Origin: a virus
Lineage: Duplodnaviria > Caudoviricetes
Length of the DNA stretch: 64,000 nucleotides
Virus record (IMG/VR): IMGVR_UViG_3300033463_000008
Reading direction: 5' to 3' (one strand)
Under the pieces are notes generated by a model. The model had not been told where the DNA came from and searched no databases. It was given only the letters and a program-made list of their open reading frames with translations. Shown here in pieces: positions 4,356 to 58,196 of this stretch; the stretch's first letter is position 1, and every line of letters starts with the position of its first letter. The position numbers and the translations under genes are program-made.

Positions 4356-4673
4356 TTAGTCGTCTTTCTCTTCTTTCTTGTCCGACTTGCTGTTGTACTT
4401 TGCACCCTTTTCGGCAGCCATACGCTGTTTAAGCTTCTCGGTCGGGATGTCATGGAACATCTTGCGGTGGAGGTCCTTGTAGCTAGCCTTGACATTGTTC
4501 CTGTACTGCGGGTCAAGGTACTTCGAGTCCATCCAAGGAGCGTCTTCTTTGACGCCTTCGAAGCAAACTTTGGCTGCGGAACGGACTGCCTCACACAATC
4601 CGGTTGCACCGCTAGCCTTCTCGAAATTGGTGAGGAAGGTGTTAAATTTTTTAATACGTTCGTTGAGATCCAT
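4356..4673 (-). CDS. Small basic protein with shared N-terminal leader (putative head-internal protein)
   Basis: KKFNTFL...GLCEAVRSAAKVCFEG leader; GGAG RBS; TATAAGCT at 4700-4707. Confidence 0.7.
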   Translation of the reverse strand: MDLNERIKKFNTFLTNFEKASGATGLCEAVRSAAKVCFEGVKEDAPWMDSKYLDPQYRNNVKASYKDLHRKMFHDIPTEKLKQRMAAEKGAKYNSKSDKKEEKDD

Positions 4674-4702
4674 TGTTAAACTCCGGAATGTTTTACTACA
4701 GC

Positions 4703-5464
4703 TTATATACCGGACAAATCGGTCATCATGAATGCACCCGGCGATTCCTTGATAACCTTCTCTTCCAGCTTTTCAAGACGGGCAGCAGCCGTATCATAGA
4801 TTTCCTTGCCGTTGATGGTCAACCCGCCCGGCATCGTAAAGGTATGCTTCTTCAAGATGATGCCAAGCTGTTCCTGTGCCCGCCAGAAAGCCATGTCACG
4901 GAATAGGATGTTGTTGTAGAGCTCGGACTTCTTGGCCTTCAGGTACACTTCAGCAACCGCGTTCGTCCTGGACCTCGGGGTCGGGTATATCCTCAGGAGA
5001 TGGTCCGTCGGATGGAACTTGATATGATACTGCGTGCCGACAAGCTTCTTCACGTCCTCCAGGTAGCGCAACGCGCCTGAATAGGTAATGAGGTCAAACT
5101 GCCCAAGGCCACCAAGACCGGCACCACCGACACCCATCAGGGATTCACCCGGCCCAACGTCCCATGCCATCATCGGGCTGAACGTGTTGCCGTAACTCGG
5201 GTTCACTTCAATGACGTTGACGACATTAGGCGGAACACGATATTCCATGACCCCCGGAACAAGATGGAGGACCATGAGGTCAATGTACTGGGCTTCGTCC
5301 ACACAATAACGGTAGAAGAAGTCCTCGGTGTCCTCAATAGCCATGTGTACATGGCCGAGACCACGGTCTTCTTCCACGACCATTTCAATTTCCTGACACT
5401 GCCCGCCCATCCTGGAAATGATACGGCGCACCATGTCATCGCGTGTGATATACTTGGCATCCAT
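4703..5464 (-). CDS. gp13: Neck protein, T4 gp13-like
   Basis: IISRMGG..EIE...AIE at N-terminus; QLGIILKKH...MPGGLTINGKEIY at C-terminus, typical of gp13. Confidence 0.85.
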   Translation of the reverse strand: MDAKYITRDDMVRRIISRMGGQCQEIEMVVEEDRGLGHVHMAIEDTEDFFYRYCVDEAQYIDLMVLHLVPGVMEYRVPPNVVNVIEVNPSYGNTFSPMMAWDVGPGESLMGVGGAGLGGLGQFDLITYSGALRYLEDVKKLVGTQYHIKFHPTDHLLRIYPTPRSRTNAVAEVYLKAKKSELYNNILFRDMAFWRAQEQLGIILKKHTFTMPGGLTINGKEIYDTAAARLEKLEEKVIKESPGAFMMTDLSGI

Positions 5465-5470
5465 GCCAGC

Positions 5471-5482
5471 AGTTTATAAGCT
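5471..5482. promoter_or_regulatory. Overlapping divergent late promoters AGTTTATAAGCT
   Basis: TATAAACT on - (5471-5478) and TATAAGCT on + (5475-5482); each has an ATG 6 nt downstream (5464 and 5489). Confidence 0.65.
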
Positions 5483-5488
5483 ATGGTC

Positions 5489-5962
5489 ATGGAACCAATC
5501 GAACTACTGCGAACCAGCGTCTTCAGGACTACGAACAATCCCGAACTGACCGATGCCATCATCAGGATATTCGAGACTGCCGGGGATGATACCAATGTCG
5601 CCATGGAAGCTCTTGGCAGGCTGGTAGGCTACGAGTTCGGCGAGTTCATCATGCAGCTCGCCGATATCGCATTTGACCGTGAACCGGCACTGTGTGTCGA
5701 TCCGTTATACCAAGATGCCTCGGTTGAAACCGAGGCCCGCCCGAAACACGCGACGGGATGCTTTGTCCAGCCAATAATCGCACAGGGAAACATGGCAAAG
5801 AACCTGCGGGATGACCAGCAGTGGAAGCACATCAGGAAATTCAATCCTATGCTGGAACAGGAAATCATCAAGTTTAACAACATGAATGAATTTGAAAAGT
5901 TGCGGTACTTGACCGCCAAGGAAATGGCGCAAAAATATCCGATTGGGCGGACCCGTACTTAG
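5489..5962 (+). CDS. Hypothetical protein with leader-like N-terminus (alternative start 5483)
   Basis: MEPIELLRTSVFRTTNNPELTDAIIRIFETA; late-promoter-like motif upstream. Confidence 0.65.
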   Translation: MEPIELLRTSVFRTTNNPELTDAIIRIFETAGDDTNVAMEALGRLVGYEFGEFIMQLADIAFDREPALCVDPLYQDASVETEARPKHATGCFVQPIIAQGNMAKNLRDDQQWKHIRKFNPMLEQEIIKFNNMNEFEKLRYLTAKEMAQKYPIGRTRT

Positions 5963-6540
5963 CGGAACATTCGCGGGAAAGCATCTACCGTGCCAAACAG
6001 TTCAAATTTCGGGGAATAATCTTTCCAATCCTTAATCAGGGTTGAATTCTTCGAGTGTCCGCCTGGCGGAATGGCAACCGGAATATGCGAGTGTTCAGCA
6101 GTAGATTTAAAATCCCCCACGACCCCAACGGCAAACGCATCGCCCGTAATACCAATCGTATCAACCAGCAGTTTAACCTTCTTGCCCAAGTTGGCGGCAA
6201 TGTATTCCTTTACATCAGGATGGTCATCTGGAACCCCGAAAGACAATGTGCAGCGTTCACATTTCATTTCCCACCCATAAGGTGCCAACGGCTGCATTAC
6301 ATCAATTAGACGGCGTGTTGACGCCCCATCAAGAAAAATCCCGAAGAAAACGGCATGGTTTCCTTCGGGCAGTTCCATTAAATGTTCGAGGTTGAAATTA
6401 TAGCGCCAATCAGCACCATACTGTTTGGTCCACTGAATCATAACAGAATCACCCAGATCGTGTCCAGCTTTTTCCGACTCAATCCACTTGTGCCGGAGCA
6501 TTTCTTCTTTCTGGGCAGCCATGATATCAGCCATCTTCAT
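5959..6540 (-). CDS. DUF4032-like domain fused to a degenerate 2H phosphoesterase-like domain
   Basis: EEMLRHKWIESEKAGHDLG...W (DUF4032-like); C-terminal GIFLD..S...GW..CERCTLSFG...LGKKVKL...AVGV...SHIPVAI..GG...S..IKDW matches phage 2H domains but both HxT motifs are altered. Confidence 0.6.
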   Translation of the reverse strand: MKMADIMAAQKEEMLRHKWIESEKAGHDLGDSVMIQWTKQYGADWRYNFNLEHLMELPEGNHAVFFGIFLDGASTRRLIDVMQPLAPYGWEMKCERCTLSFGVPDDHPDVKEYIAANLGKKVKLLVDTIGITGDAFAVGVVGDFKSTAEHSHIPVAIPPGGHSKNSTLIKDWKDYSPKFELFGTVDAFPRMFR

Positions 6541-6591
6541 ATTAGATCCCCCTCAGGAAATATAGTACGAAAATGTTACGCCATCTACGGC

Positions 6592-7074
6592 TTAGCCATC
6601 AAACTGAGTGAACTTGTAGATGATGTCGGTCATCTTTTCGTCAAAATCGGCGTAAATATTTTTCACGCCTTCCGACATCTTAGGATTCTTTGCCGCCACG
6701 TCAGCCATGTGTGACTGAAGTTCTTTGAGCTTGGCAATGACGGTCTCGTCATCGACCTTCACATCAGCAGCCGGCTTCCCCGTGATGGCAACATAACTCT
6801 CGGCAAGACGGTCACCGACATCACGGCAAAGGTCATATGCATCCTGCAATAGAGTATGCTTCGACATCTTTTTGACCCCCCAGTGTATCTTATTCAAGTC
6901 ATTGGAGGAGTCAAGGAGCCAATTGGCAGTGTCCTTGACACTGTCGTAGTTTCCGCCCTTACCATCAGCAGCTTCTAATCTGGCAACCATGAGGGCGATA
7001 GACTTCGCAACCATCGGATCGCCGGTAATCTTTGTGGCTGCTTCAACAAGAATCTTGGTTTTGACGGAATTCAT
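6592..7074 (-). CDS. Ferritin/Dps-like four-helix protein with leader-like N-terminus
   Basis: IHW..K..KH..L..AY.......DRLAESY pattern of Dps-like/ferritin-like phage proteins; GAGG RBS; TATAAACT at 7098-7105. Confidence 0.6.
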   Translation of the reverse strand: MNSVKTKILVEAATKITGDPMVAKSIALMVARLEAADGKGGNYDSVKDTANWLLDSSNDLNKIHWGVKKMSKHTLLQDAYDLCRDVGDRLAESYVAITGKPAADVKVDDETVIAKLKELQSHMADVAAKNPKMSEGVKNIYADFDEKMTDIIYKFTQFDG

Positions 7075-7112
7075 AAGAACCTCTTTTTAACAACAGCAGT
7101 TTATAGTCATCA

Positions 7113-7196
7113 CTACAGGAGTCCGCTCCAATCATCATGATTGAAGAATATGACCCCGGCAGCAATGACTACCGCAACTATCACTAGCGACGACAT
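7113..7196 (-). CDS. Putative 27-aa single-TM peptide
   Basis: MSSLVIVAVVIAAGVIFFNHDDWSGLL*; starts 4 nt after the upstream stop and fills the gap. Confidence 0.4.
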   Translation of the reverse strand: MSSLVIVAVVIAAGVIFFNHDDWSGLL

Positions 7197-7199
7197 GGT

Positions 7200-7790: not shown

Positions 7791-7824
7791 TGTGTTATCT
7801 TCCTTTCGTTATAAAATTATTTCC

Positions 7825-10127: not shown

Positions 10128-10195
10128 TTCAGCGATAGATTTATAAGTTCATGGTTGTTGAAACCTTATAAGTCTATGGGTGAGGTATCCCCGAT

Positions 10196-10553
10196 GAACG
10201 AAGAATTGGAAAGATATTTTAAGGAAGCACGAGCAGTTATCAAAGATAATGCCGTCCTGGAAAGTGTGGTCACCGGAATGAAAACGGTGATTATCGAAGC
10301 AACCGGCGATTGCCCTTGCGGCGATCCTGATTGCAACGGCCACTGCAAGTACGGCCTCGAAGAAAACAAGAAGCCAGAAGAACCAAAGCAAGAAGCGGTT
10401 GAACAGACTCCATTGCAAATCCTCGAAGCAGCACGAGGGGATACCCCCAAGAAGGACTTTGTTCAGGCTCTCCGTGAGGCGATCGAACAAGTCAACAAGG
10501 CGCCATTGAAAGCTCGACTGAAGCAAAAGCTAGATAAATACGCAAGCATGTAG
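10196..10553 (+). CDS. Hypothetical protein with shared leader and CPCGDPDCNGHC motif
   Basis: GAGG RBS before ATG 10196; RYFKEARAVIKDNAVLESVVTGMKTVIIEA leader. Confidence 0.7.
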
Positions 10554-15468: not shown

Positions 15469-16356
15469 TTAGCCGAATCGGCCACCGATTCCGAGTTCAT
15501 CGTATGCCGCAATCTGCTTCATTGCTATGCCAACGTCATCGGTCGGTTCGGCATTTTCCCCACGGATAGCCTCCAAGGTAACGGTTGTTCCCTGGAGCCC
15601 GACCCTTTGTGGCTTCAAGCCACGACCGACAGCCTCAACGAAGTTGCGCTGGGCAGGAGTCTGCTTAGGCTGGGCAGGTTCCTCGTTGCCATTGAAGTCC
15701 AGCTGGAAATCATCGGCATCCTTGATGGCATTGCGAATCTTGTCCATGTTGATGTCGCTCGGATCAGGATCGACATCAAGGACAAAGCCGTTTTGGTCAT
15801 CGATAAGATGCGCATTGATGAATGCCGTAACGCTTTCCTTCGTGATTTCGCGTTCATCATGGCCACGGAAATGGTCGAGGACATTGCTGACCGTATTGGG
15901 GTCGAGACCCTGGCAAAGCCTGAGAACTTTCGTTTCAGCATTAGCCTTGTTAAGCCTGTCAGTAATCTCTTCGTGCTTGATGTAGTTCTCTTTTAGTTCA
16001 AGGTTAACCTTGGCCAATTCCCTCTTTAGTTCCTTCACGGTCTGGGTATCACCAAAACCATCGACACCAAGGGAATTTTCAAGGATAGCGGCTACGCCTT
16101 TCAACGCGGCATACATCTTTGTGTTGATTGCGTCAGTCTGCATGTTGTTCATACATGACTCGACAGCCGCATTGATTTTATCTTCAACCTTAGCATTAAC
16201 TGATTCAAGAAGCTTGGAGAACTTCTCGGCAGTTTTCTTTGATTCCGCCTTTACACCGGCCTCCAACCTCGACTGGTAGTCCGACTCGATTTTGGCGGCA
16301 ACGCCTTCAGGCAATGAACCAATTTCGGCTTCTGTCAATATCTTTTCCAGCACCAT
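15469..16356 (-). CDS. gp22: Prohead core scaffold protein, T4 gp22-like
   Basis: Acidic coiled-coil directly downstream of the prohead protease; many hydrophobic-x-E-[A/S] sites. Confidence 0.72.
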   Translation of the reverse strand: MVLEKILTEAEIGSLPEGVAAKIESDYQSRLEAGVKAESKKTAEKFSKLLESVNAKVEDKINAAVESCMNNMQTDAINTKMYAALKGVAAILENSLGVDGFGDTQTVKELKRELAKVNLELKENYIKHEEITDRLNKANAETKVLRLCQGLDPNTVSNVLDHFRGHDEREITKESVTAFINAHLIDDQNGFVLDVDPDPSDINMDKIRNAIKDADDFQLDFNGNEEPAQPKQTPAQRNFVEAVGRGLKPQRVGLQGTTVTLEAIRGENAEPTDDVGIAMKQIAAYDELGIGGRFG

Positions 16357-16363
16357 ATTATCC

Positions 16364-17104
16364 CTATCTCATCTGGCTCAGGTACCCAATGAGCGATTCA
16401 CGGTTAAAGCTGCGATACCCGGTGGATATCAGGGCCCTATTGTATGCCACTTCACGGCGCAGCGAATTGATTGATTCGGTGAGGACCTTTGCAGGTTTTT
16501 CAATGGATTCACGACGGGAATTAAAGATTGCGCTCTGACCGAAACTCGGGTTGCCGACCACATCAACGGTAATCATTGTGTAGTTGTCGGCAATCTGCTC
16601 GTATTCTTCACGAGTAAGCGCATTTATCTTCTTGACCGTATCACCGGCACCACGAAGCGAATATCCAGGATGATACCCAATCTTGATTAGACCGGCCAAA
16701 TCATGCCCAGCATCCGTATCCTCAGCAACGACCATGCGGCATTTAAGCTTGTCCCCTTCCATATGGAGGTCTTCAATGACAGCGCATGTCTTCTTCAAGT
16801 TCATTTCAAAAATCGGATAATCGCGGGGCTTGCCTTCTTCATCAAGTCTTGGATGATTAAGTTCGGCAGCCAGACGGCCATAAGCCACATAATCACGATT
16901 CAACCGATCAACTTCCCTGGCAATAATTTCCCGAGGATAGTCACGACCATTGATACCGACAACACCGCAAACAATGGCGGTGCCTTCAATAATCAGTCGT
17001 TTGACCGGTTTGCCATCAAGGCCGATACGCTCACCGATATGCGAAGTGGAACCTTCGAACACCGGTGTCTCGAAAATGCCCATACTGTCTGTTATTGCAC
17101 CCAT
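16364..17104 (-). CDS. gp21: Prohead protease, T4 gp21-like
   Basis: IEG......NGRDYP...ELNHP (His)...GYSLRGAG (Ser)...DVVGNPS. Confidence 0.92.
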   Translation of the reverse strand: MGAITDSMGIFETPVFEGSTSHIGERIGLDGKPVKRLIIEGTAIVCGVVGINGRDYPREIIAREVDRLNRDYVAYGRLAAELNHPRLDEEGKPRDYPIFEMNLKKTCAVIEDLHMEGDKLKCRMVVAEDTDAGHDLAGLIKIGYHPGYSLRGAGDTVKKINALTREEYEQIADNYTMITVDVVGNPSFGQSAIFNSRRESIEKPAKVLTESINSLRREVAYNRALISTGYRSFNRESLIGYLSQMR

Positions 17105-17122
17105 CTTCCAAACTCCCCTGGA

Positions 17123-17296
17123 TTAACCAAACTGAGGTTCCTGGTCAGAAAGCATACTTTCAAAAACAGCCTTGCTGGTTTCTTCGACACGGCGTTTGAA
17201 TTGGCTTTCAAGCCGGGCACTGACAATCCGATTGATTTCTGCGTCATCATTATTGAAAAGTGCCGTTACCAGTCTCTGTGTTTCTGCTTTCTGCAT
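17123..17296 (-). CDS. Small prohead core protein (gp67/gp68-like position)
   Basis: 57-aa helical ORF immediately upstream of gp21 with RLES and VFES sites; TATAAACT at 17320-17327. Confidence 0.55.
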   Translation of the reverse strand: MQKAETQRLVTALFNNDDAEINRIVSARLESQFKRRVEETSKAVFESMLSDQEPQFG

Positions 17297-17931: not shown

Positions 17932-19881
17932 CTAGGCATTCACCGGCTTACGGGCAATTTTCCCGGTAAGTTTACGAGCTGCTGGATTAGCAGGGGACGT
18001 AGTTCCGCCTTTAAACATCATCACGCTTCCGAGGTTATTGATAAGCCTATCAATTGCCTTCCAGGAATAGCCAGCAAGCGGACATCCCTTTCCAAGCATG
18101 ATGGAACGAATCATGTTCACAAAATTCGGCGGCACCTCGGCAAGACTTACCGTCTCATCATTCACTTGTGCATATCCAGCCGGAAGTCCCCGAATGATAT
18201 TATCCATATAAATACCGAAACTGTCCTGGATCAATCTAATTGCATTGGCACCCACCGCATTCTTAGTTGCTTTATTCAATGCATCGCATTGTGCTGCAGT
18301 CAAGGCAGGATTTTCTAAAAGTGGCTCACCCTGTTCAAGTTTTTGCATAATCTCCGGGTTACCGGACAAAATATCTTGAACAACCCCAGTGGTCTTGTCA
18401 GGAATCCCAAACAGCGTCTTAATTAATACAAATGTCGGTGTGCCCTTCCCAAGTACACGAAGAAGATCAAGTATTGTAGCACCCGGGTTTAACGGGTCGC
18501 TGCTATAGATTGCGTAGCCGTCATTAAGCGACGCCTTGAGTTCATTGGCACCATCTTCAATCGTTTCAATATACGCATCCGGAATTTCATCCTCAGATAC
18601 ATCACTTAATTCAGAACCGCCAAGCGAACTTACATCACCCACCCACACGGTCGGCATGATTTCTTCCACAATCGATTCAGTGGAAGGTACTTCGCCCTTC
18701 TTATATCCCAACTTTCTAAGCAACCCGGCTAGGTCAGTTTGGTTACATTCTTCGGCATTGAACTTACCGGAATTTACAAGCTTACTTACGGCAAAATAGC
18801 ACTGCTCCAGTTGCGACCAGTCCATGTTTTGCAATTCAGGATTGGTGTAGCCCAAATCATTAATCATCTTTATCAGCCGAGAACCAATCGCTGCATTATT
18901 CTGGTTAGGTTCTTCTTCAGGTGCCTCTTCAATTCCAACACCAAGTTGTTCAGACGCATCCTTAGCCGATGAGAAATGCTGGTCCTCTTCATTATCGGAA
19001 TGGCGGACTTCCTGTGCGCTTACGTCTTCATCCAAGTTGTTGTTTTCTTCAATTTCAAACGTGCCTTCATTAGACATCACATCAGCGGCAGTATCATCAG
19101 ATTTCTTTTTGGACCCACCCTTTTTACCGCTGCCTTTTTCAGTAGTATCATACTTGCTATATACCGCCCCGCTATATTGCTCGTCATCACCGGCAATATG
19201 CTGCTTTTCCACACCGCCCATATGGCTTTTTGCAAATTCAACTAATTGTTCATTGGTCGGCTCTGACAAACCTATGGATGCAAGGGCATCATTAGTTGTC
19301 ACTTGTCCAGGCCATGGTATATTACGCGATTTATACTGGTCAATTGCCCACTGGCGCTTAATGAAATTCTTATTTTCCTTTCGGCTGACAAGATTCTCTA
19401 TATTAGTGCCATACAATTCCTTTCCACAAATATATGCGGAAACCCCATTGCTTTCCAGAAGAACGCCAGCAACATCCATGATAGCCTCTACCTGAATAGT
19501 GTCAAGACCCATATCGAACAGGGTGTTACGCATCTTGTCTTCACGGCTTTCACCAAGGGCATGACGAAACTCCGGAGTAGGGGCAGCATCATCCTTATAC
19601 TGTTCATACGGGACATAGTCAATCCATGAATCCATCGACTCCACGACACGTGCCTTGAATTCTTCCGGCGTACCGCTACCGGCTTCACTCGACCCGTCAC
19701 CGAGATAAATGGTGTAGGACAATGTTCCATCGCCATTGTCGGTGCATTCGGCGAGCGTTCCCTCGCTATTCGGGAGAGACACTACAATAGTGCCATCCGC
19801 TTTCTTAGAAACGGCTGCCCCACTCTTGGAAAGCAGGTCCGAAATTGTGTCAAAGATTTCTTCGTTCATGGTATAGTCCAA
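17932..19881 (-). CDS. Large acidic hypothetical protein with an internal leader-like segment
   Basis: 649-aa ORF (start may be ATG 19869); IQVEAIMDVAGVLLES segment; TATAAACT at 19900-19907. Confidence 0.75.
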   Translation of the reverse strand: MDYTMNEEIFDTISDLLSKSGAAVSKKADGTIVVSLPNSEGTLAECTDNGDGTLSYTIYLGDGSSEAGSGTPEEFKARVVESMDSWIDYVPYEQYKDDAAPTPEFRHALGESREDKMRNTLFDMGLDTIQVEAIMDVAGVLLESNGVSAYICGKELYGTNIENLVSRKENKNFIKRQWAIDQYKSRNIPWPGQVTTNDALASIGLSEPTNEQLVEFAKSHMGGVEKQHIAGDDEQYSGAVYSKYDTTEKGSGKKGGSKKKSDDTAADVMSNEGTFEIEENNNLDEDVSAQEVRHSDNEEDQHFSSAKDASEQLGVGIEEAPEEEPNQNNAAIGSRLIKMINDLGYTNPELQNMDWSQLEQCYFAVSKLVNSGKFNAEECNQTDLAGLLRKLGYKKGEVPSTESIVEEIMPTVWVGDVSSLGGSELSDVSEDEIPDAYIETIEDGANELKASLNDGYAIYSSDPLNPGATILDLLRVLGKGTPTFVLIKTLFGIPDKTTGVVQDILSGNPEIMQKLEQGEPLLENPALTAAQCDALNKATKNAVGANAIRLIQDSFGIYMDNIIRGLPAGYAQVNDETVSLAEVPPNFVNMIRSIMLGKGCPLAGYSWKAIDRLINNLGSVMMFKGGTTSPANPAARKLTGKIARKPVNA

Positions 19882-20059: not shown

Positions 20060-20632
20060 TCAGCTTGCCGCACCAGCGCCGGCACCGCCGCCACCACCGC
20101 CACCGGCGCCATCACCGGCATATACGCCATTCTGGTTGTTCGGGCATGTGACCGAATATCCGCACTGCATTGGCATGCGGGTCAAGTTGAGATTCCACTG
20201 CATCGGGTTGGGCAGATGTTCCTTGGCCCGCTTAATCATCTGATCAATGGGCACGGACTGCAGTGCATCTGACTTGTATTTGTTAAGTCCGGTAATCTGT
20301 CCCCCGGAAATCAAGTCGGGAACATTCCATTTCGCATCGCGGGTTTCCTCGCCTATGTCACGAGTGCAATGCCCACTTACGCTAACTCCGCCATCAGGAA
20401 GGACATCAGGAGCCGACGTTCCGGATGTATTGGCGGCATTCGGGACTACGTGGGTAAAGCCCTTCCAGTCGATTACGGCATTCTGTCGTACCGAATCAGG
20501 CACCATAAGCGGGCGGAAAAAGTTCCCCTCGCAGAGTGCACGAAATGTTTCCGCAGCTTCTACCACACCACGGTCACCAGTCGCCTCGAAGAGGCCCTTC
20601 ATAAATTCCAGGTACTTGATTGCCGGAACCAT
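20060..20632 (-). CDS. Hypothetical protein with shared leader and Gly-rich C-terminus
   Basis: KYLEFMKGLFEATGDRGVVEAAETFRALCEG leader. Confidence 0.7.
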   Translation of the reverse strand: MVPAIKYLEFMKGLFEATGDRGVVEAAETFRALCEGNFFRPLMVPDSVRQNAVIDWKGFTHVVPNAANTSGTSAPDVLPDGGVSVSGHCTRDIGEETRDAKWNVPDLISGGQITGLNKYKSDALQSVPIDQMIKRAKEHLPNPMQWNLNLTRMPMQCGYSVTCPNNQNGVYAGDGAGGGGGGGAGAGAAS

Positions 20633-20636: not shown

Positions 20637-21002
20637 TTACCCCTGCGCATTGGCAACTTGTTTCTGGTTCTGTTCATTCAGTGTATTCTTGGCATTCAGT
20701 TCCTGCTGCAATTCACCAAGGGTTTGCCCTGCTGCAGCGGTAGTCTGGTCAAGCTGGGCCTGGGCATTGTCAACCTGCTGTTTTTCCTGAGCGGCCTTGT
20801 TGGCAATGTTGGCAAGCACCTTGGCGCCTTCCGGATTTTCCGTAAGGGCAGCCGGGTCAACCGGGATACTGTTTTCAGTAGTGCCACCATTCTGAACCTG
20901 GGTAGAATCGGCCTCGAAAAGGCATTCCCACGCAGCCACAGCTGCATTACCCATTGCAGGAACACCCGCACATGATTCCAAAATTGTCTGCTTAAAATTC
21001 AT
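20637..21002 (-). CDS. Gln/Ala-rich coiled-coil protein with shared leader
   Basis: FKQTILESCAG...AAVAAWECLFEA; GAGG RBS; TATAAACT at 21020-21027. Confidence 0.7.
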   Translation of the reverse strand: MNFKQTILESCAGVPAMGNAAVAAWECLFEADSTQVQNGGTTENSIPVDPAALTENPEGAKVLANIANKAAQEKQQVDNAQAQLDQTTAAAGQTLGELQQELNAKNTLNEQNQKQVANAQG

Positions 21003-22848: not shown

Positions 22849-24237
22849 CTACTTCTGATATGCCTCGATAACCTGTCCGATGGTGTCAAATTCTTCATTT
22901 TTGCCATCTTCCGGTTCGACAACCCACTTTTTGCTGTCATAATCGTAGCGGAACGGTATCTTCTTGATGACATCCTTGTCACGGAAGATGAGTTCATCGT
23001 CCTGTTCACCAACATGCTTGGCAATGACGCCATCGGCCTTGATGAGGAACGCGCAGTCACCATATCCAAGGTCATAGTGCTTCAAATACGAACAACCGAC
23101 CGGGAGGGCGAACAGCCACCCCTGCTTGCCCCGTCCTCCGTCATACATCGTAGTGTAGGCAAGGTGGTCAAGTACCGTAGTACCGTTGGCAAAGCCACCC
23201 TTCTTGATTTTCGGGTAAGCCTTATCGTTTGTAAAGTGAACCGCCCAGGCGCCTTCCTTGATATGGGCGTCCTTGAAGTAATTGAAGGCTTTCTTGGTTG
23301 TATCGACATACCCCTTGGAGTCCTTGATGTCTTCCGTCGGTTTCTTGCCGAGATACCTGTTCAATTTCTTCATATTCCCATCTACGGATTCCATTGCACC
23401 TGCGTAGCCGGACCGGTACGCGTTACGCACAGTATCAACAAGTTTCTGATCTACCTGCTTATTCGGCGCAATCTCGGGATTTTTCGATGCAGAGTTCACA
23501 TATGCATCACGGAATTCTCCCGACTTAAGAAACTTTTCCCACGGATAAACGCCATGCCTGGTAATAAACACCTCGATCATGGCCATGTCGTTTTTCAGCT
23601 GCGCAACTGCATAGTCACGATTGCTCGATTCACATAAAGGAACTACATGCGTTCTGGAAACGCCTTCAGTGATGTCATACAGTGACAGGATTGATTCTAT
23701 GAGAGCTCGGTGCCCGGGTGTCACCTTGCACACCGAATCCATGATGTTACGGTACGCGGCGCGGTGTTCATCACGGATTTTCTGTGGATTCACCCTAATG
23801 TAGTCATCCATCAGGTTGCCACGCTTTTCGGCTTTCTTGAAGTCGGGCGTTTGCCTCATCTGGTTAAACTCACGGTTGCCGTAGGTTTTCAGAAAATATG
23901 TGATGTCGTCACATGCCTGGAGGAAACGGTTATAATCATTTTCCCAAGTCTTGCGGTCATTGTCAATCAGGAACTGCTTTGCCTTTTGTTGCTGAGGCGT
24001 GAAGTCACGATGTTTCAAGCCAAGAGTATTTTCGGGTGGCGGGGTCCGCTTGGCCGCATTGGCTCCGCCAACGATCTTGTTTTTCAGTCTTCCCACCAGG
24101 CTCCGGGCACGGTTAAAGAAATTATCCATGCCTTCCAATACCACATACTCCTTCAAGGCGCATTCAAGCAATGGCCGATTCTCGTCGGTAGCCAAAGCAA
24201 CAACTGAATTTATGAACTCTCGGTGTCTCTGTTCCAT
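22849..24237 (-). CDS. Multi-module protein: two leader copies plus C-terminal ADP-ribosyltransferase-like domain (alternative start 24255)
   Basis: Leaders REFINSV...LLECALKEYVVLEG and YRNIMDSV...LIESILSLYDITEG; C-terminal HFT......I...GF...GWLFA...YG...DELIF; TATAAACT at 24261-24268. Confidence 0.5.
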   Translation of the reverse strand: MEQRHREFINSVVALATDENRPLLECALKEYVVLEGMDNFFNRARSLVGRLKNKIVGGANAAKRTPPPENTLGLKHRDFTPQQQKAKQFLIDNDRKTWENDYNRFLQACDDITYFLKTYGNREFNQMRQTPDFKKAEKRGNLMDDYIRVNPQKIRDEHRAAYRNIMDSVCKVTPGHRALIESILSLYDITEGVSRTHVVPLCESSNRDYAVAQLKNDMAMIEVFITRHGVYPWEKFLKSGEFRDAYVNSASKNPEIAPNKQVDQKLVDTVRNAYRSGYAGAMESVDGNMKKLNRYLGKKPTEDIKDSKGYVDTTKKAFNYFKDAHIKEGAWAVHFTNDKAYPKIKKGGFANGTTVLDHLAYTTMYDGGRGKQGWLFALPVGCSYLKHYDLGYGDCAFLIKADGVIAKHVGEQDDELIFRDKDVIKKIPFRYDYDSKKWVVEPEDGKNEEFDTIGQVIEAYQK

Positions 24238-25337: not shown

Positions 25338-25500
25338 GGAATGCACGGATTGTAAATGAACTACCCACACGCTAAAGACGTGTGGGTTTCCACAGCATCT
25401 GCGAGTGATGTTTCCAAGGCTGCTCCCCTAACGGGGTTCATAGAATCCTCGGCGTAAATTCCGGCTGTCCGAGCCGTATTGTTTAACCTGAACGCGAACT
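25338..25500 (-). ncRNA. Putative TnpB omega/reRNA (scaffold overlapping the tnpB 3' end plus flanking guide); boundaries approximate
   Basis: Established architecture of IS200/IS605 TnpB loci; right-end hairpin is visible; guide would begin about TTACAATCCGTGCATTCC. Confidence 0.5.
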
Positions 25501-27334: not shown

Positions 27335-27913
27335 ATGCCAGCTGACATCAAACATGTACCACAGATGGAATCGATGATGGCTTTCTACACAAAATTTGCC
27401 AATTCATTCGATTGCCCGACTATCTTGGCCGAGGCTGCTACCGAGATGTTCAAAGAAGTCCTTCTGGAAGCTTCTCAGTCAAGCGACGTTGCTGACCAGC
27501 TCCGTCAAAAAGTGGGTGTAAATCCAAACGAGACCCAGGGTATTGATGTGTTCGGACTTAGCGGCGATGACAACCTTCCGCGGCAAACTACCATCGACAA
27601 CGAGATTTCGGATGCGATGATAAGCGGTTCGTTTGATTCTCTGGGCGATGACATTTCCACCACAGATCCAAATAGTTTCGATGAAACTGCAATGGGTCTC
27701 GGAAGTTCAGAATTTGACACTTCCGATAACGAACTAAACCCGGACGACTGGACAGCAGAAGAGCAAACCTCGGATACTGATATACCGGAAACTGCTGAAG
27801 ATGCAAACAGCACCGGTGGTGATGAACTTGAACCAGCTGCCGATGAAGGTGGCATGGAAGATGATTTAAACTCGACCGGCGATGATGCCGAAATGAGTAC
27901 AGGGGAATTATAA
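27335..27913 (+). CDS. Highly acidic protein with shared leader
   Basis: AFYTKFANSFDCPTILAEAATEMFKEVLLEA; D/E-rich tail; TATAAGAC upstream. Confidence 0.75.
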   Translation: MPADIKHVPQMESMMAFYTKFANSFDCPTILAEAATEMFKEVLLEASQSSDVADQLRQKVGVNPNETQGIDVFGLSGDDNLPRQTTIDNEISDAMISGSFDSLGDDISTTDPNSFDETAMGLGSSEFDTSDNELNPDDWTAEEQTSDTDIPETAEDANSTGGDELEPAADEGGMEDDLNSTGDDAEMSTGEL

Positions 27914-27928: not shown

Positions 27929-28654
27929 ATGAATAAAATCCAACAAAAGTACAATGCTTTCATGGAAAGCGTATGCACTCAGTTCAACTGCAAGCAGGCA
28001 CTTCCGGCCCTCAGACAGGGTTTCAAGGCTTTCTGCGAAGCCGTTGATGTCGATTACGACCCGTTCGACATTGACAATATGGTCGCCAACGCGTCCGATG
28101 CCGAATTCGGTGCCGAAAACAATGACAGCCGGTATAATATCGACCGTGTCACCGGTCAAGGAAGCGTTGACTTTGACGAAGGTGACGCCGATGATACTAA
28201 CGTCGCCCTCGTGACTCAGAGGCTTGCCAAGAGACTGCAGGTTCTATTTGATCGCGAATCTTACCGAGCTCTCAGTGCAAGACTGGATGACAGACATGAC
28301 AACTGGATTGTTATTAATGTCGATGGCATTTATATGGGTACGGTAGTAGTTACTGGCAACACCGTGTCAGCAGAATATCCAGAATTCTCTGATGGGAATG
28401 GCCGCGCACTTCCTTTCAGCAATGTTAAGTGTTCTGTAAGTAAGTTCGATTTAGATGATCCTCAACTAGCAGACAATGTGGCCGCAGTATATTTGGATAG
28501 GGCCATGTCTGTCAGTTCCAAAGTGAATGCATTGAACAGAGAACCTTATGAAGTCACACGCGAACGCCAGCAAAAAATACTTAATGCCGGCGCTGATATG
28601 AATGATGATGAATTTGCGAATGCATTGCGCAATCACGAGTTCGACAATTTGTAA
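27929..28654 (+). CDS. Hypothetical protein with shared leader
   Basis: TAAGGAG RBS; KYNAFMESVCTQFNCKQALPALRQGFKAFCEA. Confidence 0.78.
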   Translation: MNKIQQKYNAFMESVCTQFNCKQALPALRQGFKAFCEAVDVDYDPFDIDNMVANASDAEFGAENNDSRYNIDRVTGQGSVDFDEGDADDTNVALVTQRLAKRLQVLFDRESYRALSARLDDRHDNWIVINVDGIYMGTVVVTGNTVSAEYPEFSDGNGRALPFSNVKCSVSKFDLDDPQLADNVAAVYLDRAMSVSSKVNALNREPYEVTRERQQKILNAGADMNDDEFANALRNHEFDNL

Positions 28655-54300: not shown

Positions 54301-55082
54301 TTTCCATCAATTCCAGACACAATGAACTTGCCAAGCGTCTTGGTATTGGTGTCAGCCGGACCATACACGGTATCGCCAACGATAAAGCCAGGGTTGACAG
54401 CCAGGGTAACACGGAATGTATCCGGATTGCGGTCCTGCAAGTCATCCGGCTGTGCAACAATCTCATACGAGGTCACTGCGCGACGAGCGGAGCTCGGGTC
54501 AGCACCCATGATTGCAAAGAGGACTGCGTCGCCATCGCCACGAGCCTTTTCACTATCCTTGAAGCTTTCATCGGCGAAAACCCTAAAGTCCACGTTGGAC
54601 CCGGAATCGACCGTTTCAGCGATGTTGTTGATTTTACGAGTTACACCGTAGCCGGAAGCGCCGTCAGACTTGTAACGGGTAGCCGCAAAGTATTCGATGT
54701 TAATCGAATTCTGCTTGCCCTTTTCCTGCTGAGCGGCCTTGCGGTCGAAGGACACGACAAAGCAGTCGGTCTTCAAGTCACGCTTGCGGGCGTCACTCAT
54801 GTCGATTTCTTCGCCATACGGGCGGACATACTGGGCAAAGCCACCGGCATCAAGCACGGCGCGTGCAGCATATAGGCCCTGGTTGTACTTCCAGTTATTG
54901 AAACCGATACCGAACGTATTGTCCATCACCGCAGTATTGTTCAGCTTGGTGACCTTGTTCAGCTCACCCTTGGGGGCAAAGCCAACAATGGCGGCAATCG
55001 CATTCGGATTCTCGATCACGGTATACTGAGAACTGTCTTTGAGCTCGGTGCGAACCCCAGCTGCTCCCATTTTTGTAGCCAT
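51336..55082 (-). CDS. gp18: Contractile tail sheath, gp18-like (about 1248 aa)
   Basis: GVRTELKD...AIVGFAPKGELN; C-terminal RKDCFA.FD, PAG...G, VNPF, WGD.T, FNQIHV, CDDTNNTPEVIDQNKL..D..LKP. Confidence 0.95.
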   Translation of the reverse strand: MATKMGAAGVRTELKDSSQYTVIENPNAIAAIVGFAPKGELNKVTKLNNTAVMDNTFGIGFNNWKYNQGLYAARAVLDAGGFAQYVRPYGEEIDMSDARKRDLKTDCFVVSFDRKAAQQEKGKQNSINIEYFAATRYKSDGASGYGVTRKINNIAETVDSGSNVDFRVFADESFKDSEKARGDGDAVLFAIMGADPSSARRAVTSYEIVAQPDDLQDRNPDTFRVTLAVNPGFIVGDTVYGPADTNTKTLGKFIVSGIDGKDVEVTAADEATHNACMMGYKPTSVLIFSPEDAIADDDADYLTVKTAVTGRGAKLFSSLRIDSVGVEKIATEVFNGEFFTVRDQKNVSVDVRVSNSHFSTLPNDTFVGAEIGKSVEIDAIPGVCNADVVTLEWKYDGAIHNGTFIYAVTEFNDAGTPTKAELYLEESAWYEEDLADATKFSEIVVHNLPSGWYSENDFVTLVVPTKGDDEEYTSMSYLARFLDALLAAFRGSRLGYASNVVTNDINMTNDNTNTDPAWMKAKDFVAGKTKVLKLAPGAAFDYNVGDTVAIVRGSFDTERESNGDPLTFSGDNILKLSTVTAINGFTNEVTIKDAVDSVFTETVTKTIQGSDPEFKDDYRQLQLLNLSTTNKTVYTAMTTDTVKHFDETVATQFGTEGKMEFVSTKAYVEGSTVKVKASVDGEEVWYVTTIEERGDVVGTETDYHYTLSIVAPEGATGDIEIFTGEETTGMVLDFYIIGNYDVTVNGQIQKTTLPVDVANKETGDVLGGVFHFQSSKKDSACIQQTEKVLRDSDIGANFVGLGLATVRYEDINFTGVTEKVYDLTDEGEAVARLYMACTYRFNGHVYDFDGTVVEYVHNETQLFIGDAADSEFEGSGLKFILNESGILEAFLEDESWDLSETIVDGIPTSSVTAVSFNTKDPAIVWNAIWSYDPKNNNSTTTLATAYSLFLDKDKADQTFFVAAGNDINNFGWAGRETLNTTVIQAILNICELRKDCFALFDGVAEQNVNNALKKDVVRFAPTLGRWGAIYDARPIFYDSMITRRNVEIAPSIAMASLITANRSGSIFWYVPAGKDTGVVPSAWCTRVKYERKFNIPEDSDSDIARLSDAHVNPFRTNDDGIFCWGDFTMQMEDSAFNQIHVAMLIAGIHKIFYKYLDGKVFRLNTAALRSQISSDLQAKLNMMRDSNPSAFYDAVAICDDTNNTPEVIDQNKLYVDLKLKPTKSTRYIYLRTEVLATSSGNSITISNV

Positions 55083-55203: not shown

Positions 55204-56055
55204 ATGGACAAGCGTGGTATAAATATCGAACTCAACCGGCTAAAGGCCAAGAATCCGGGGCAGGAAACCCTCATCGAGGGTGTCCAGCACCTGTTCAATG
55301 AGAAAGTCGAGACTGCCACGCCGGAAGAAAAGCGCTCGCTACTGATGTTCCCGATGCAGTATGCCGCTTACCGTATCAAGACAAGCCCGAGCGAATGGAC
55401 GACCCAGCTCCATAAATGGGCCGACAACTTGCTGGACACAATCCTCCAGCTAGACCCGCTGTACCTCACTACACGAGATTCGTCCGGGGACACCGTGCTG
55501 CACCGCCTAGTGAAGGCAGCGACAGGCGAATTCACCGACGAGGTGAACTACGAATTTATAAGGAAGCTGCTTGACAAGGACATGGGATTTATCGCACTGC
55601 AGTCCCCATTTGAAAACGGAGGCGCCCAGGCGGGTTCCGCGTGGATGATGCAGGACGTGGACGGCAAGACCCCTATGGACCTTCTCGCCGACTATGCAAT
55701 AGGAAAGCCGGAAGCGGGCATCCCGGCAGATGACCAGCTGTTAATGATGCTGGATGAATTCGCAAATTCCCCTGTTGCCGAAATCGACGTGACCGAAGTA
55801 ACTACACCCGCACCCGTGCCTCCCCAGCAGAACGGCGAACAGCAGGCACAGCCAGAACAGGCTCCACAGGAAGGACAGCCGGCACAGCAGAACGGACCGA
55901 AGCCACTGGTCGAACCGCAGATGTCTGCCGAGAAGTCGGAAAATGAAAAAACGCCGGAAGACGCAAAGCATCATCCGGCACCTGAGGCACGGCCCCAAAA
56001 TACCGTGCCAGGAAAGGTGACTAAGTCAATCCTTGAGGCCCTCCTCCGCCTTTAA
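55204..56055 (+). CDS. Ankyrin-repeat-like protein with shared leader
   Basis: GAGG RBS; TATAAACT at 55173-55180; RDSSGDTVLHRLV and QDVDGKTPMDLL; leader LNRLKAKNPGQETLIEGVQHLFNEKVETA. Confidence 0.6.
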   Translation: MDKRGINIELNRLKAKNPGQETLIEGVQHLFNEKVETATPEEKRSLLMFPMQYAAYRIKTSPSEWTTQLHKWADNLLDTILQLDPLYLTTRDSSGDTVLHRLVKAATGEFTDEVNYEFIRKLLDKDMGFIALQSPFENGGAQAGSAWMMQDVDGKTPMDLLADYAIGKPEAGIPADDQLLMMLDEFANSPVAEIDVTEVTTPAPVPPQQNGEQQAQPEQAPQEGQPAQQNGPKPLVEPQMSAEKSENEKTPEDAKHHPAPEARPQNTVPGKVTKSILEALLRL

Positions 56056-56235
56056 GCCATCAAAGTCCTTCTTCACCTTTGCAAACATTCTATTGAGGCC
56101 AGCATCGTCGTAGAACATGTTGGCCGCAATTTCATTGGCGGCATCCCCGGTCTTGAAACCGGCATCGACAATCCTTTTGGCGGTAGCCTCGTCTACGCCG
56201 AAAAGGTCCATTATCTCATTCAGGTTCGCACTCAT
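56026..56235 (-). CDS. Small helix-hairpin-helix-like protein
   Basis: LFGVDEATAKRIVDAGF; coupled to gp62. Confidence 0.5.
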   Translation of the reverse strand: MSANLNEIMDLFGVDEATAKRIVDAGFKTGDAANEIAANMFYDDAGLNRMFAKVKKDFDGLKAEEGLKD

Positions 56236-56702
56236 TTCAAATTTGCCGCCTTCTTGATATTGCGATTGATTTGCCGTTCTTCACCCTGCATTCGGGCAAT
56301 CATCTTCTCGGGCTCGTACTTCCGCATGTAGGCCTCCTCGATTTCATCCTTGTCCACATAGCCATAGCGGATTGCAGCCTTGACACAGTTCCTTGACATG
56401 CCGGTAATCTTCATCATATGATCAATGAATTCGTCCTTTTCGCGGACAACGGTAGTCTTGGCGCGAGTCCACCTGAGATTCAGGTTCGCCCCGTTGAACG
56501 CATTGAACGCACGCGCCTGCAAGTCCTTCGGGAGCTTCTGGAACTGCAGGTCGTTCAATACCTCCACACACCTCCGCAGGTTCGGATTCATCGACAGGTA
56601 CCGGCAGGCAGTAAACATCTGGAACTCGTTACAGTCGGCTTCAGAAACCGGCTGCCCCGCCTGTCGCTCATCCACAAACCGGAATGGATCGAAATTGCTC
56701 AT
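56232..56702 (-). CDS. gp62: Clamp loader small subunit, gp62-like
   Basis: Directly after gp44; F...RYLSM......V..LN.......Q....F........W.......S...A..Y pattern. Confidence 0.7.
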   Translation of the reverse strand: MSNFDPFRFVDERQAGQPVSEADCNEFQMFTACRYLSMNPNLRRCVEVLNDLQFQKLPKDLQARAFNAFNGANLNLRWTRAKTTVVREKDEFIDHMMKITGMSRNCVKAAIRYGYVDKDEIEEAYMRKYEPEKMIARMQGEERQINRNIKKAANLK

Positions 56703-57814
56703 TACACCCCCTGAGCCGACTGTACCTGTTCACCGACCGCATTCGTATTGTTCGGTGCATAAATCGGCTCGCTCGGCAACGGTGCAGCCGGAATCTGGAA
56801 TGCGTTGAATATGTCAATCAAGTCGGCAAAATAGCCCATGAGCATGGTTTCCTGGTCAACCAGTCCCTGTGCATGGACAAGGCCGTCACGGACGACCTTT
56901 GTCATTGCCAGGTCCATCTGGGGAGGAAGACGGTCCATGAGGTATCGTGTCAATGGGATATACACGTTCATCGGGTCATCCACGTTCATCGAAATATAAT
57001 ACCGCAATCCGCGCAAGTCGCGTAAAATCAAAAACTTCGCGATAGCCTCGACCGTCTGGTCAGTAATCACATGCGGATGCCCGATAATGTTACCTTCATT
57101 TTCGTCGAAGGTATTCTTCATGACATTTATCATGTTGCGGATATCCGGGTAGCATGCTTCGATGATTTCCTTGATGGTATCCTTCTCCACCTTGCCACCA
57201 TGCGGCTTTGTTTCCTCGTCCGCAATGTATTTCAGCCTCCGATAAATAAGATTCTTAAAATCCTTGTCATCAACCGGGTGGTTGAACTTCACCGGGGTGC
57301 ATCTTGACTGGACAGGTTTCGGGATGCGCCACAGGTCATTGCAGGTAAGGATAAACCTGAGGTTCGAGGAATTCGCTTCAATCTCATGCTGGATATTGCG
57401 CCAGAAGTCTTCCGGGTTATTCGGATGGTCGCATTCATCAAGCACGAAGAAGAACGGCTTGCCGTTGCTTTTCAAGACGGAATACCGGTCAATCAGTTCA
57501 AGGATTTCACTTGATTTCTTTGGCGACACCTCGACACACTTGGCGCCGAGAATGCCCGGAATCGCCAATGCAAGGGAAGTCTTTCCCGTGCCAGGGCCAG
57601 AATAGAAGATGTAGTTGCCAAGGCCGGTATTGGAAATCGCGGTCTTGATCATAGTCTTCAACTTATTGGGCAAAACAATCAGCTTGCTGATGTCAGTCCC
57701 GTCAATCTGGGTACCCTGGTACTTCTTGGTCCAGTATCTGTCATCAATCGTACTGGCGGCAGTTGCAGTTTCCCTGTCAAGCCCGACGCCCGAAATCATG
57801 TCTAATGCGGCCAT
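56702..57814 (-). CDS. gp44: Clamp loader ATPase subunit, gp44/RFC-like
   Basis: WTKKY, GPGTGKTS, LDECD, RFILTCN, PVQSRC, YPDIRNMIN; GAGG RBS before ATG 57814. Confidence 0.93.
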   Translation of the reverse strand: MAALDMISGVGLDRETATAASTIDDRYWTKKYQGTQIDGTDISKLIVLPNKLKTMIKTAISNTGLGNYIFYSGPGTGKTSLALAIPGILGAKCVEVSPKKSSEILELIDRYSVLKSNGKPFFFVLDECDHPNNPEDFWRNIQHEIEANSSNLRFILTCNDLWRIPKPVQSRCTPVKFNHPVDDKDFKNLIYRRLKYIADEETKPHGGKVEKDTIKEIIEACYPDIRNMINVMKNTFDENEGNIIGHPHVITDQTVEAIAKFLILRDLRGLRYYISMNVDDPMNVYIPLTRYLMDRLPPQMDLAMTKVVRDGLVHAQGLVDQETMLMGYFADLIDIFNAFQIPAAPLPSEPIYAPNNTNAVGEQVQSAQGV

Positions 57815-57857
57815 ATTGAAACCTCTTTGAAACAAATATAGCAATAAACTGTCCGGT

Positions 57858-58196
57858 ATGGACAGGTATCTAGCTTTTATCGACCGTTTTCGCGACCAGG
57901 ACCCCGTAGTATGCGAGGCCGTAGCCAAATTATGGACAGCAATAATGGAAGCATCGGCAACCGATGTAAATCCAACCATGCATGCCCCGATGCCAGGTCA
58001 GTGCACCCAGGGCATCATCCCCAACCAGACTACAGGATCCAAGGACCCGTTCATCCAGGGCTTAATCAACCGTTCATACGCCAGCCGCTTTGGGCGGGGC
58101 GCCGGATTCAGCATGCCGGGCCGCACCACCCTCGGCATCATGGGTGGTGGCAATGACAAGCCGGGTGCCGTATCCGCCACCGAATCCAATAGCTAG
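57858..58196 (+). CDS. Small protein with shared leader
   Basis: RYLAFIDRFRDQDPVVCEAVAKLWTAIMEA; AATAAACT 7 nt upstream. Confidence 0.65.
   Translation: MDRYLAFIDRFRDQDPVVCEAVAKLWTAIMEASATDVNPTMHAPMPGQCTQGIIPNQTTGSKDPFIQGLINRSYASRFGRGAGFSMPGRTTLGIMGGGNDKPGAVSATESNS

Follow-up and report, generated by a model that had tools for sequence, protein, structure and literature searches.

In bacteriophage T4, the capsid-targeting sequence (CTS) of IPI, IPII, IPIII, and Alt is an N-terminal propeptide carried by otherwise unrelated proteins (PMC3012670, PMC9026906), in which targeting is governed by residues 4 and 7, and processing by residues 8 and 10 (PMC9026906). The genes tagged in this way are hypervariable between relatives (PMC3012670, PMC9026906), and the CTS ends in hydrophobic-x-Glu followed by a small residue. 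Propeptides are also carried by head and ejection proteins of the giant phiKZ-like phages (phiKZ, 201phi2-1, and SPN3US), where a diverged homologue of gp21 cleaves them off after Glu; they have multiple cut sites and have been inferred to play a targeting role (PMC5694885, PMC9026906). Most exceed 100 aa, and a single portable sequence common to them is not described. A further point of comparison is offered by the polymorphic effectors, which join one conserved N-terminal module to many unrelated C-terminal bodies, form tandem arrays with cassettes replaced at fixed loci, and are destined for a secretion system.

The leader described here was noticed in a stretch of 64,000 nucleotides (hereafter, the window) from a 198-kb virus record of the Caudoviricetes. 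Like the T4 CTS, it would be a propeptide at the N-terminus of proteins that are otherwise unrelated, and it ends at hydrophobic-x-Glu followed by a small residue, in a phage with a gp21-type S77 protease, and the genes that carry it are hypervariable between relatives. It differs from the CTS in length (31-46 aa versus 10-19 aa), in its predicted fold as a two-helix hairpin, in having two candidate cut sites, in three conserved Cys residues without a T4 counterpart, and in the size of the system (each genome has at least seven tagged genes, and metagenomes together yield ~70 body families). Its bodies are mostly acidic (median pI 4.8), whereas T4 internal proteins are basic (PMC9026906). When the T4 CTS (MKTYQEFIAE) is read as Y4-x-x-F7-I-A-E10/A (a slash marks a cut or candidate cut throughout), the two share only the short pattern aromatic-x-x-Phe-h-(x)-Glu-small, and a leader HMM gave no significant score against T4 IPI, IPII, IPIII, or Alt. 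The leader is also shorter than the propeptides of the phiKZ-like phages, its candidate sites are hydrophobic at both positions preceding Glu, and its genome carries T4-type gp23 and gp20, unlike phiKZ-like (chimallivirus-type) genomes. In contrast to the polymorphic effectors, with which it shares the tandem and cassette-like arrangement of a conserved module with unrelated bodies, the leader is phage-encoded and only ~37 aa long, its proposed destination is the capsid, and no toxin or immunity pairs were seen.

Leader genes of the window

A first-pass annotation of the window had listed 11 genes, named here by their start coordinates, as sharing an N-terminal leader on unrelated bodies. All 11 ORFs are present with the N-termini quoted, although the gene placed at 10196 correctly starts at 10194; the start given as 5489 (ORF 5483) matches orthologues beginning MEPIELL. 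The bodies do lack BLASTP similarity to one another, and Pfam and PHROGs returned no match for the leader proteins of the window except 7074. The proposed leader stands at the N-terminus of all 11 genes and is 31-46 aa long, with its terminal Glu kept among the orthologues of nine of these families. Its detection is possible at the profile level only. All-against-all Smith-Waterman scores between N-termini were not above shuffled or internal-segment controls, and an unbiased greedy motif search seeded with the best pairs did not recover the family unaided; therefore, the statistics rest on leave-one-out scores against greedily chosen controls.

For these scores, leave-one-out HMMs were run on the first 50 aa of 145 proteins, and each member was ranked against 134 non-members. 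The summed score of the 11 genes was 73.1 bits, compared with 3.4-35.0 bits for eight greedily optimised control sets. Seven genes ranked first (4673, 57858, 20632, 27929, 27335, 10194, and 7074), while four were not recovered (21002 at rank 11, 5483 at rank 13, 55204 at rank 26, and the N-terminus of 24237 at rank 29). In profile-profile comparison, leader-leader scores had a median of 9.8 versus 7.3 for 540 leader-control pairs (Mann-Whitney p 4e-14), with strong links connecting 27929, 20632, 27335, 57858, 4673, and an internal copy at 23662-23769. At the level of sequence, the leader family is real for a core of the 11 listed genes and weak for the remainder; three to four of the 11 are doubtful members.

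The type member of the leader discussed below, 27929..28654 (+ strand, 241 aa), ranks first and carries its leader at 27929-28042 (aa 1-38), ending in Phe-Cys-Glu/Ala. The gene at 27335..27913 (+, 192 aa; leader at about 27335-27472, end Leu-Leu-Glu/Ala) has a very acidic body (charge -37) and an hhalign score of 21.3 against the 27929 type; in its orthologues, 70-160 additional residues precede the leader. A score of 23.4 against the same type was reached by 20060..20632 (-, 190 aa; leader 20525-20632), where the Glu residues of both candidate sites, Leu-Phe-Glu/Ala and Leu-Cys-Glu/Gly, are conserved in a relative of 65% identity. At 4356..4673 (-, 105 aa, basic body; leader 4554-4673, end Cys-Phe-Glu/Gly), conservation among 19 orthologues stops directly behind Cys-Phe-Glu, and the body is a different one in the most distant relative. 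The gene at 57858..58196 (+, 112 aa; leader 57858-57953, end Ile-Met-Glu/Ala) ranks first with 15.9 bits and scores 21.1 against 4673 and 21.4 against 27335 in hhalign.

Two internal copies had also been proposed, and they fared differently. The copy at 23662-23769 (-), ending in Ile-Thr-Glu/Gly, lies inside a polyprotein-like 462-aa protein (22849..24237, -) and was found at E 2e-4 with a model built without it, with an hhalign score of 21.2 against the 27929 type. The N-terminal segment of the same protein (24130-24237, end Val-Leu-Glu/Gly) is the one that ranked only 29th. Residues Glu 35, 191, 203, and 283 of this protein are invariant across 11 orthologues and flank variable linkers. An ADP-ribosyltransferase identity for its C-terminal domain was considered and rejected: AF2 modelled it poorly (pLDDT 60), no PDB sequence matched the profile, and Foldseek returned nothing below E 0.1. 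The second internal copy (19450..19545, -, end Leu-Leu-Glu/Ser) is not significant by the leader HMM and fits at the pattern level only, but two relatives with an overall identity of only about 38-40% retain both the segment and its Glu-Ser end. It belongs to a fast-evolving 645-aa protein (17932-19869), which was also considered as a portal; this was rejected, as the T4-type portal and capsid genes are ~110 kb distant. No further leader copies were found in the remaining 134 kb of the record.

The other listed genes invite a different explanation, namely that the weak members (55204, 5483, and the N-terminus of 24237, and in part 21002, 7074, and 10194) are chance or convergent helical N-termini picked by eye. 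For these genes we consider this probable, given the leave-one-out ranks of 11 to 29 listed above, pairwise scores at noise, and hhalign scores mostly within the control range. The gene at 55204..56055 (+, 283 aa; segment 55204-55317) is conserved on both sides of the proposed site, and many orthologues have Lys or Ala in place of the proposed Glu; its hhalign score of 18.1 against the internal copy at 23662-23769 nonetheless argues the other way. In 5483..5962 (+, 159 aa; segment 5483-5581, end Ile-Phe-Glu-Thr) there is likewise no conservation boundary at the proposed site, and Asp replaces Glu in one orthologue. Chance resemblance is harder to hold for 21002, 7074, and 10194, which keep Glu and the small residue in the 65%-identity relative. 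The first of these, 20637..21002 (-, 121 aa; leader 20910-21002, end Leu-Phe-Glu/Ala), pairs with 20060-20632 as first gene and scores 16.1 against 57858 (hhalign), and its Glu and following Ala/Ser are conserved in two relatives; we regard it as a moderately supported member by sequence. At 10194..10553 (+, 119 aa, Cys-rich body; leader 10194-10301, end Ile-Ile-Glu/Ala), first rank came with only 6.8 bits and profile links are weak, and the terminal Glu is conserved in relatives. The third, 6592..7074 (-, 160 aa; leader 6970-7074, end Arg-Leu-Glu/Ala), ranked first with only 3.5 bits. Because the phrog_858/DUF5856 profile matching its body begins at residue 42, the leader is an add-on to a known phage family.

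Late-type promoter motifs precede most leader genes. The motif TATAAACT is over-represented, with 35 copies compared with at most 13 for any other TATAANNN octamer. It had been said to stand before each of the 11 genes, directly or through a pair; we found exact copies before four, copies with one mismatch before three more, and two genes placed second in a pair, but only poorer matches for the other two. At 21002 it lies 25 nt upstream. The expected enrichment of leaders among late-promoter genes was borne out with a loose motif (Fisher p 0.005).

A portable module with sharp boundaries

The clearest picture comes from the 27929-type leader, whose profile (A5) was searched against 1.84 billion proteins, with matches counted as cluster representatives. 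There were 144 at E<=1e-3, 81 of them at E<=1e-10. The leader begins at residues 1-12 in 165 of 177 pooled matching proteins and is internal in the other 12, as it also is in the 27335 orthologues and the G2_122040 family. Among the 156 proteins whose bodies reach 60 aa or more, one leader type (median identity 51%) is followed by 70 BLASTP-unrelated body clusters. Profile position 37 is Glu in 173 of 178 sequences, position 38 is small in 170 (Ala 120, Ser 37, Thr 8, Gly 5), and there is no conservation from position 39 onward. The same limits are visible in DNA: in three in-register copies, the 111 leader bases are 70-86% identical, whereas identity is 24-39% in the 60 bases that precede them and in the 111 that follow. 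Sequence comparison thus gives good support for the leader as a discrete and portable module, in most cases N-terminal, with sharp protein and DNA boundaries and a conserved h-x-Glu/small motif at its end.

Within the module, the first helix bears the motif [YF]-x-x-F-[MI]-E-[SG] (Tyr/Phe in 167, Phe in 169, and Glu in 170 of 178 sequences), so that a second Glu-small pair lies behind helix 1, and three Cys are nearly invariant. AF2 predicts the 27929 leader as a helical hairpin (helices 3-18 and 22-39) with pLDDT 91-97 over residues 1-40 and lower values afterwards. The bodies are small (median 166 aa), without fibre-like repeats, and several proteins have additional h-x-E-small sites just behind the leader. 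Some bodies are folded domains of known families (phrog_858/DUF5856, zinc ribbons, and Fib_succ_major), and one weak Tad2-like match was seen among 45 proteins; one cargo domain points to Fibrobacter as a candidate host. In relatives, leader genes with differing bodies form tandem arrays, located between the gene for terminase and those for gp23 and portal, and a syntenic slot can hold a different body behind the leader.

The leader had no match among 50,697 GenBank phage records. GenBank phages queried with a stretch of DNA and with one window protein also gave no match, and a sheath protein query found distant T4-like relatives only. The 27335 and 27929 genes, as well as another leader variant, are represented on contigs of metatranscriptome libraries, which is not in itself proof of transcription.

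Head genes, candidate processing, and competing explanations

The presumed processing enzyme is a T4 gp21-type prohead serine protease at 16364..17104 (-; Pfam Peptidase_S77, E 5e-14), present as a single copy in the 198-kb record, and several leader genes of the window lie within about 7 kb of it. Directly after it comes a putative scaffold gene (15469..16356, -), gp22-like by position, with four h-x-E-[AGS] sites and no family match; before it stands a gp67-like ORF of 57 aa (17123..17296, -), assigned by position only, with TATAAACT 31 nt upstream. Such sites had been described as frequent in these three ORFs, and their 598 aa do contain eight, against an expectation of 3.1 (Poisson p 0.014). 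Across the whole proteome, strict h-h-E-[AGS] sites are ~3x denser at residues 25-50 than beyond residue 100. The genome encodes T4-type Gp23 and Portal_T4, and the gp23-type capsid protein has Val-Leu-Glu/Ser aligned with the T4 Leu-Leu-Glu/Gly motif and Lys-Phe-Glu/Ser aligned beside the T4 Leu-Thr-Glu/Ala maturation site.

By analogy with T4, we consider it likely, with a probability of about 0.6, that the leader is a longer, two-part analogue of the CTS that is removed by the prohead protease. In such a scheme, the leaders would work as N-terminal propeptides: an amphipathic helix-turn-helix of roughly 31-46 aa would attach the precursor to the scaffold core while the prohead assembles, cleavage after the terminal Glu would be carried out by the single gp21-type (S77) protease, with the earlier Glu at the end of helix 1 probably a further cut point, and the mature protein would be released within the head. 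An address that is complete in itself and stops precisely at the cut site would let recombination place new bodies behind it, which would explain a fast-turning-over set of head-internal proteins. Core binding, cleavage, virion residence, and injection are what we infer for the leader proteins. The portable module, its Glu-small end, the gp21-type protease, and the corresponding sites of the gp23-type capsid protein speak for the modular targeting tag that the first-pass annotation had proposed, while the leader being internal in some proteins and the four statistically unrecovered window genes speak against it.

The internal position also bears on a second, unlikely explanation, in which the leader serves docking or assembly with a partner outside the head core (a phage chaperone, a site on the tail or baseplate, or a host target shared by varied effectors) and Glu is an uncut domain-boundary residue. 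Tail-fibre adaptors and polymorphic effectors likewise pair a conserved N-terminus with a variable C-terminus, and three near-invariant Cys together with a confidently predicted hairpin point to a folded binding domain more than to a simple signal. However, the Glu-small pair ends the similarity in 97% of the 178 sequences and recurs after helix 1, such sites match gp21-type protease specificity (PMC9026906), and small, mostly acidic bodies lacking fibre-like repeats are not what this explanation leads one to expect; nor is the placement of leader genes next to head genes in relatives and near the protease gene in the window.

Still less probable is that the tagged proteins are expendable core or scaffold filler, degraded or expelled at maturation in the way of T4 gp67, gp68, and the acidic internal peptides rather than delivered to the host: many bodies are strongly acidic and of low complexity, as in 27335, and several proteins have extra h-x-E-small sites past the leader (four invariant candidate sites in the 462-aa protein), but ~70 unrelated bodies with quick turnover between close relatives are hard to reconcile with structural filler, and the folded bodies of known families, with the one weak Tad2-like match, also argue against it.

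Implications for giant phages of the rumen

Should the leader indeed target proteins to the prohead, it would provide a searchable signature for giant-phage proteins that are delivered with the DNA and are otherwise invisible in metagenomes. In T4, the proteins co-delivered with DNA include anti-restriction factors. The ~70 orphan body families behind one leader are ready candidates for counter-defence screens, and the leader itself would be a second, sequence-distinct packaging tag for engineered protein delivery by phage heads. A more tentative proposal, which we think rather doubtful as a whole, is that this rumen giant-phage clade has a cassette system for head-delivered proteins, in which a folded, Cys-bearing hairpin of 37 aa would be the universal address and dozens of unrelated, mostly acidic proteins, swapped in tandem arrays, would be injected as a first-wave arsenal for anti-defence or host takeover. 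Were that so, the leader would be a sequence handle with which to find injected effectors directly in metagenomes. If the targeting reading is true, the T4 targeting principle would extend, in a longer and folded form, to an uncultured clade of the T4 superfamily that is common in the cattle gut.

Leader-tagged genes in the window

The first-pass annotation had described about eleven genes in which unrelated bodies follow a similar N-terminal leader, a two-helix segment of 30-45 aa ending in h-x-Glu and a small residue. These ORFs, named here by their starts, and their N-termini are present as described, and no BLASTP similarity was found among the eleven bodies. Pairwise N-terminal similarity was not above shuffled or internal-segment controls, and the family is detectable at the profile level only. 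When leave-one-out HMMs were run on the N-terminal 50 residues of 145 proteins, the shared leader was recovered in seven of the eleven, with 4673(-), 57858(+), 20632(-), 27929(+), 27335(+), 10194(+), and 7074(-) each ranking first against 134 non-members, and was not recovered for the 24237(-) N-terminus, 55204(+), 5483(+), or 21002(-). The summed leave-one-out score was 73.1 bits, compared with 3.4-35.0 bits for eight control sets, each picked greedily for maximal self-similarity. Profile-profile comparison of leader alignments built from orthologues agreed in direction (leader-leader median 9.8 versus 7.3 over 540 leader-control pairs, p 4e-14), the strongest links joining 27929, 20632, 27335, 57858, 4673, and an internal copy at 23662-23769. 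The family is real for a core set of about seven genes; the 24237 N-terminus, 21002, 7074, and 10194 are possible members. Membership of 55204 and 5483 appears doubtful from their orthologues: in the former, Lys or Ala often replaces the proposed cut-site Glu, and both flanks are equally conserved; in the latter, no conservation boundary falls at the proposed site and one member carries Asp.

Two internal copies had also been proposed. That at 23662-23769 was found (E 2e-4) by a model built without it, and its 462-aa host protein (22849-24237, minus strand) is clearly laid out like a polyprotein, with invariant Glu where modules meet; an ADP-ribosyltransferase fold at the C-terminal end of this protein was not supported. 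The segment at 19450-19545 was not significant, and its Leu-x-Glu-Ser end is kept in two relatives. The 645-aa protein containing it (17932-19869, minus strand), directly upstream of the protease operon, is fast-evolving (38-40% identity versus 80-95% in neighbouring genes); its assignment as portal was rejected, Portal_T4 being found ~110 kb away. A six-frame search of the other 134 kb of the record yielded no further leader copies.

The record holds 35 copies of the late-type motif TATAAACT and at most 13 of any other TATAANNN octamer; the motif is found ahead of structural genes. It or a one-mismatch form lies upstream of 7 of the 11 leader genes (p 0.005); of the others, two stand second in a gene pair and two show poorer matches only. 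At 5466-5482, overlapping late-type motifs stand back to back, with TATAAACTG on the minus strand serving 4703-5464 and TATAAGCT on the plus strand ending just 8 nt ahead of the 5483 ATG; the 5483 mRNA may therefore be nearly leaderless, or it may begin at 5489.

The 27929-type leader in databases and relatives

For the leader of the 241-aa protein at 27929-28654, the evidence is far stronger than was visible in the window sequence. A profile built from four sequences matched 75 proteins of 117-461 aa among 5.8 billion, 74 of which had E values of 1e-11 or lower (the lowest being 5e-23). Of 1.84 billion cluster representatives, it matched 144 at E ≤ 1e-3, including 81 with E ≤ 1e-10. Of the 177 pooled proteins, 165 have the leader starting within residues 1-12; in the other 12 it is internal, as in some 27335 relatives and one other family. 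Of 178 aligned segments, 173 have Glu at position 37 and 170 have Ala, Ser, Thr, or Gly at position 38, with no conservation from position 39 onward. A second conserved motif, Phe-[Met/Ile]-Glu-[Ser/Gly], stands at the end of helix 1. Grouping the 156 proteins whose bodies reach 60 aa gave 70 clusters unrelated to one another by BLASTP, and leaders from different clusters share a median identity of 51%. The proposed two-helix form holds as a prediction: AlphaFold2 places helices at residues 3-18 and 22-39 (pLDDT 91-97 over residues 1-40), the second helix having the candidate cut site at its end, and confidence falls directly after residue 40. Near-invariant Cys at positions 16, 21, and 36 (176, 146, and 164 of 178; codons 27974-27976, 27989-27991, and 28034-28036, plus strand) might bind a metal or staple the hairpin. 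In other leader types as well, Cys is frequent at the two positions just before the Glu of the candidate cut site.

Two relatives, each of 253 kb, are ~80% and ~65% identical to the window phage at the protein level. In the more distant one, the terminal Glu and small next residue are kept in eight orthologous families while adjacent positions are altered (e.g., CFEG to CFEA, LFEA to LLES, and IIEA to VIEA). In the 4673 family, conservation ends directly after Cys-Phe-Glu. The closer one has three additional 27929-type leader genes, one in the syntenic slot of 27929, whose bodies are related neither among themselves nor to that of 27929. Across three in-register copies, the 111 leader bases are 70-86% identical, and identity is at random level in the 60 bases upstream and in the 111 bases that follow the leader. 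On one related contig, the terminase gene and the gp23/portal genes flank a tandem run of three such genes; a further gene at this place bears a different leader type, which also heads another body in another relative. Relatives have an island of variable content, bounded by the terminase gene and an HSP20/sigma-factor pair (L037:8176-12602, G002:10122-13240), which holds 2-4 tandem leader genes with differing bodies; the window's record lacks it because the record starts just beyond. Contigs of two metatranscriptome studies match the central leader bases alone (27955-27996) and diverge on both sides, one encoding a MDYRQKKIYT variant; those RNA libraries therefore contain other leader-tagged genes of related phages.

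In 7074, the match to a known phage family (phrog_858/DUF5856) begins only at residue 42, which makes the leader an addition to a pre-existing protein. Other body matches comprise a few zinc ribbons, one Fib_succ_major, and one weak Tad2-like domain; nearly all remaining bodies have no functional match.

Genomic setting

The window corresponds to bases 73545-137544, reverse strand, in a linear 198,445-bp record (~53% complete by CheckV) from a strongly diverged phage of the T4 superfamily. It encodes a gp21-type prohead protease (16364-17104, Peptidase_S77), the only S77 gene in the record, together with a baseplate wedge protein, a tail sheath stabiliser, a gp46-like nuclease, PhoH, and a 1248-aa tail sheath (51336-55082, minus strand); T4-type sheath profiles match only the last ~400 residues of the latter, leaving a large N-terminal extension. 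T4-type Gp23 and Portal_T4 lie in the same record (G000:C1:7194-10597), ~110 kb from the protease/scaffold-like/gp67-like cluster (15469-17296), a split head module; in T4, the capsid, portal, protease, scaffold, and gp67 genes are contiguous. A TnpB/IS605-family transposase-like gene (25361-26581, minus strand; phrog_506, E 8e-122) has two more copies elsewhere in the record with near-identical N-termini.

No close relative was found among GenBank phages; near-identical DNA is present in bovine gut metagenomes from many studies, and related contigs span 76-474 kb. A Fibrobacter succinogenes major domain (PF09603, E 1.7e-15) on one leader-tagged database protein, the bovine gut matches, and ~50% G+C together hint at a Fibrobacter host.

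A putative capsid-targeting propeptide

Proteases of the gp21 type cleave after Glu with few other determinants, and T4 internal proteins share only a removable N-terminal capsid-targeting sequence (PMC3012670, PMC5694885, PMC9026906), in which residues 4 and 7 serve targeting and residues 8 and 10 processing (PMC9026906). In the record's gp23-type capsid protein, Val-Leu-Glu|Ser aligns to the T4 Leu-Leu-Glu/Gly motif, and Lys-Phe-Glu|Ser aligns next to the T4 Leu-Thr-Glu|Ala maturation site. Across the proteome, strict h-h-Glu-small sites are ~3x as dense at residues 25-50 as they are after residue 100. Leader helix 1 (Tyr/Phe-x-x-Phe-Met/Ile-Glu-Ser) resembles T4 Tyr4-x-x-Phe7-Ile-Ala-Glu10|Ala, although this is not a statistical match, and the leader HMM gave no significant score on T4 sequences. 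Unlike the basic T4 internal proteins (PMC9026906), the leader bodies are mostly acidic (median pI 4.8). The best reading of the leader is a targeting propeptide that the protease would remove, an interpretation that is plausible and has good grounds in analogy. Under this reading, an uncultured clade of rumen giant phages, whose set of tagged proteins is unusually large and fast-changing, would have a variant of the T4 capsid-targeting principle that is longer and folded.
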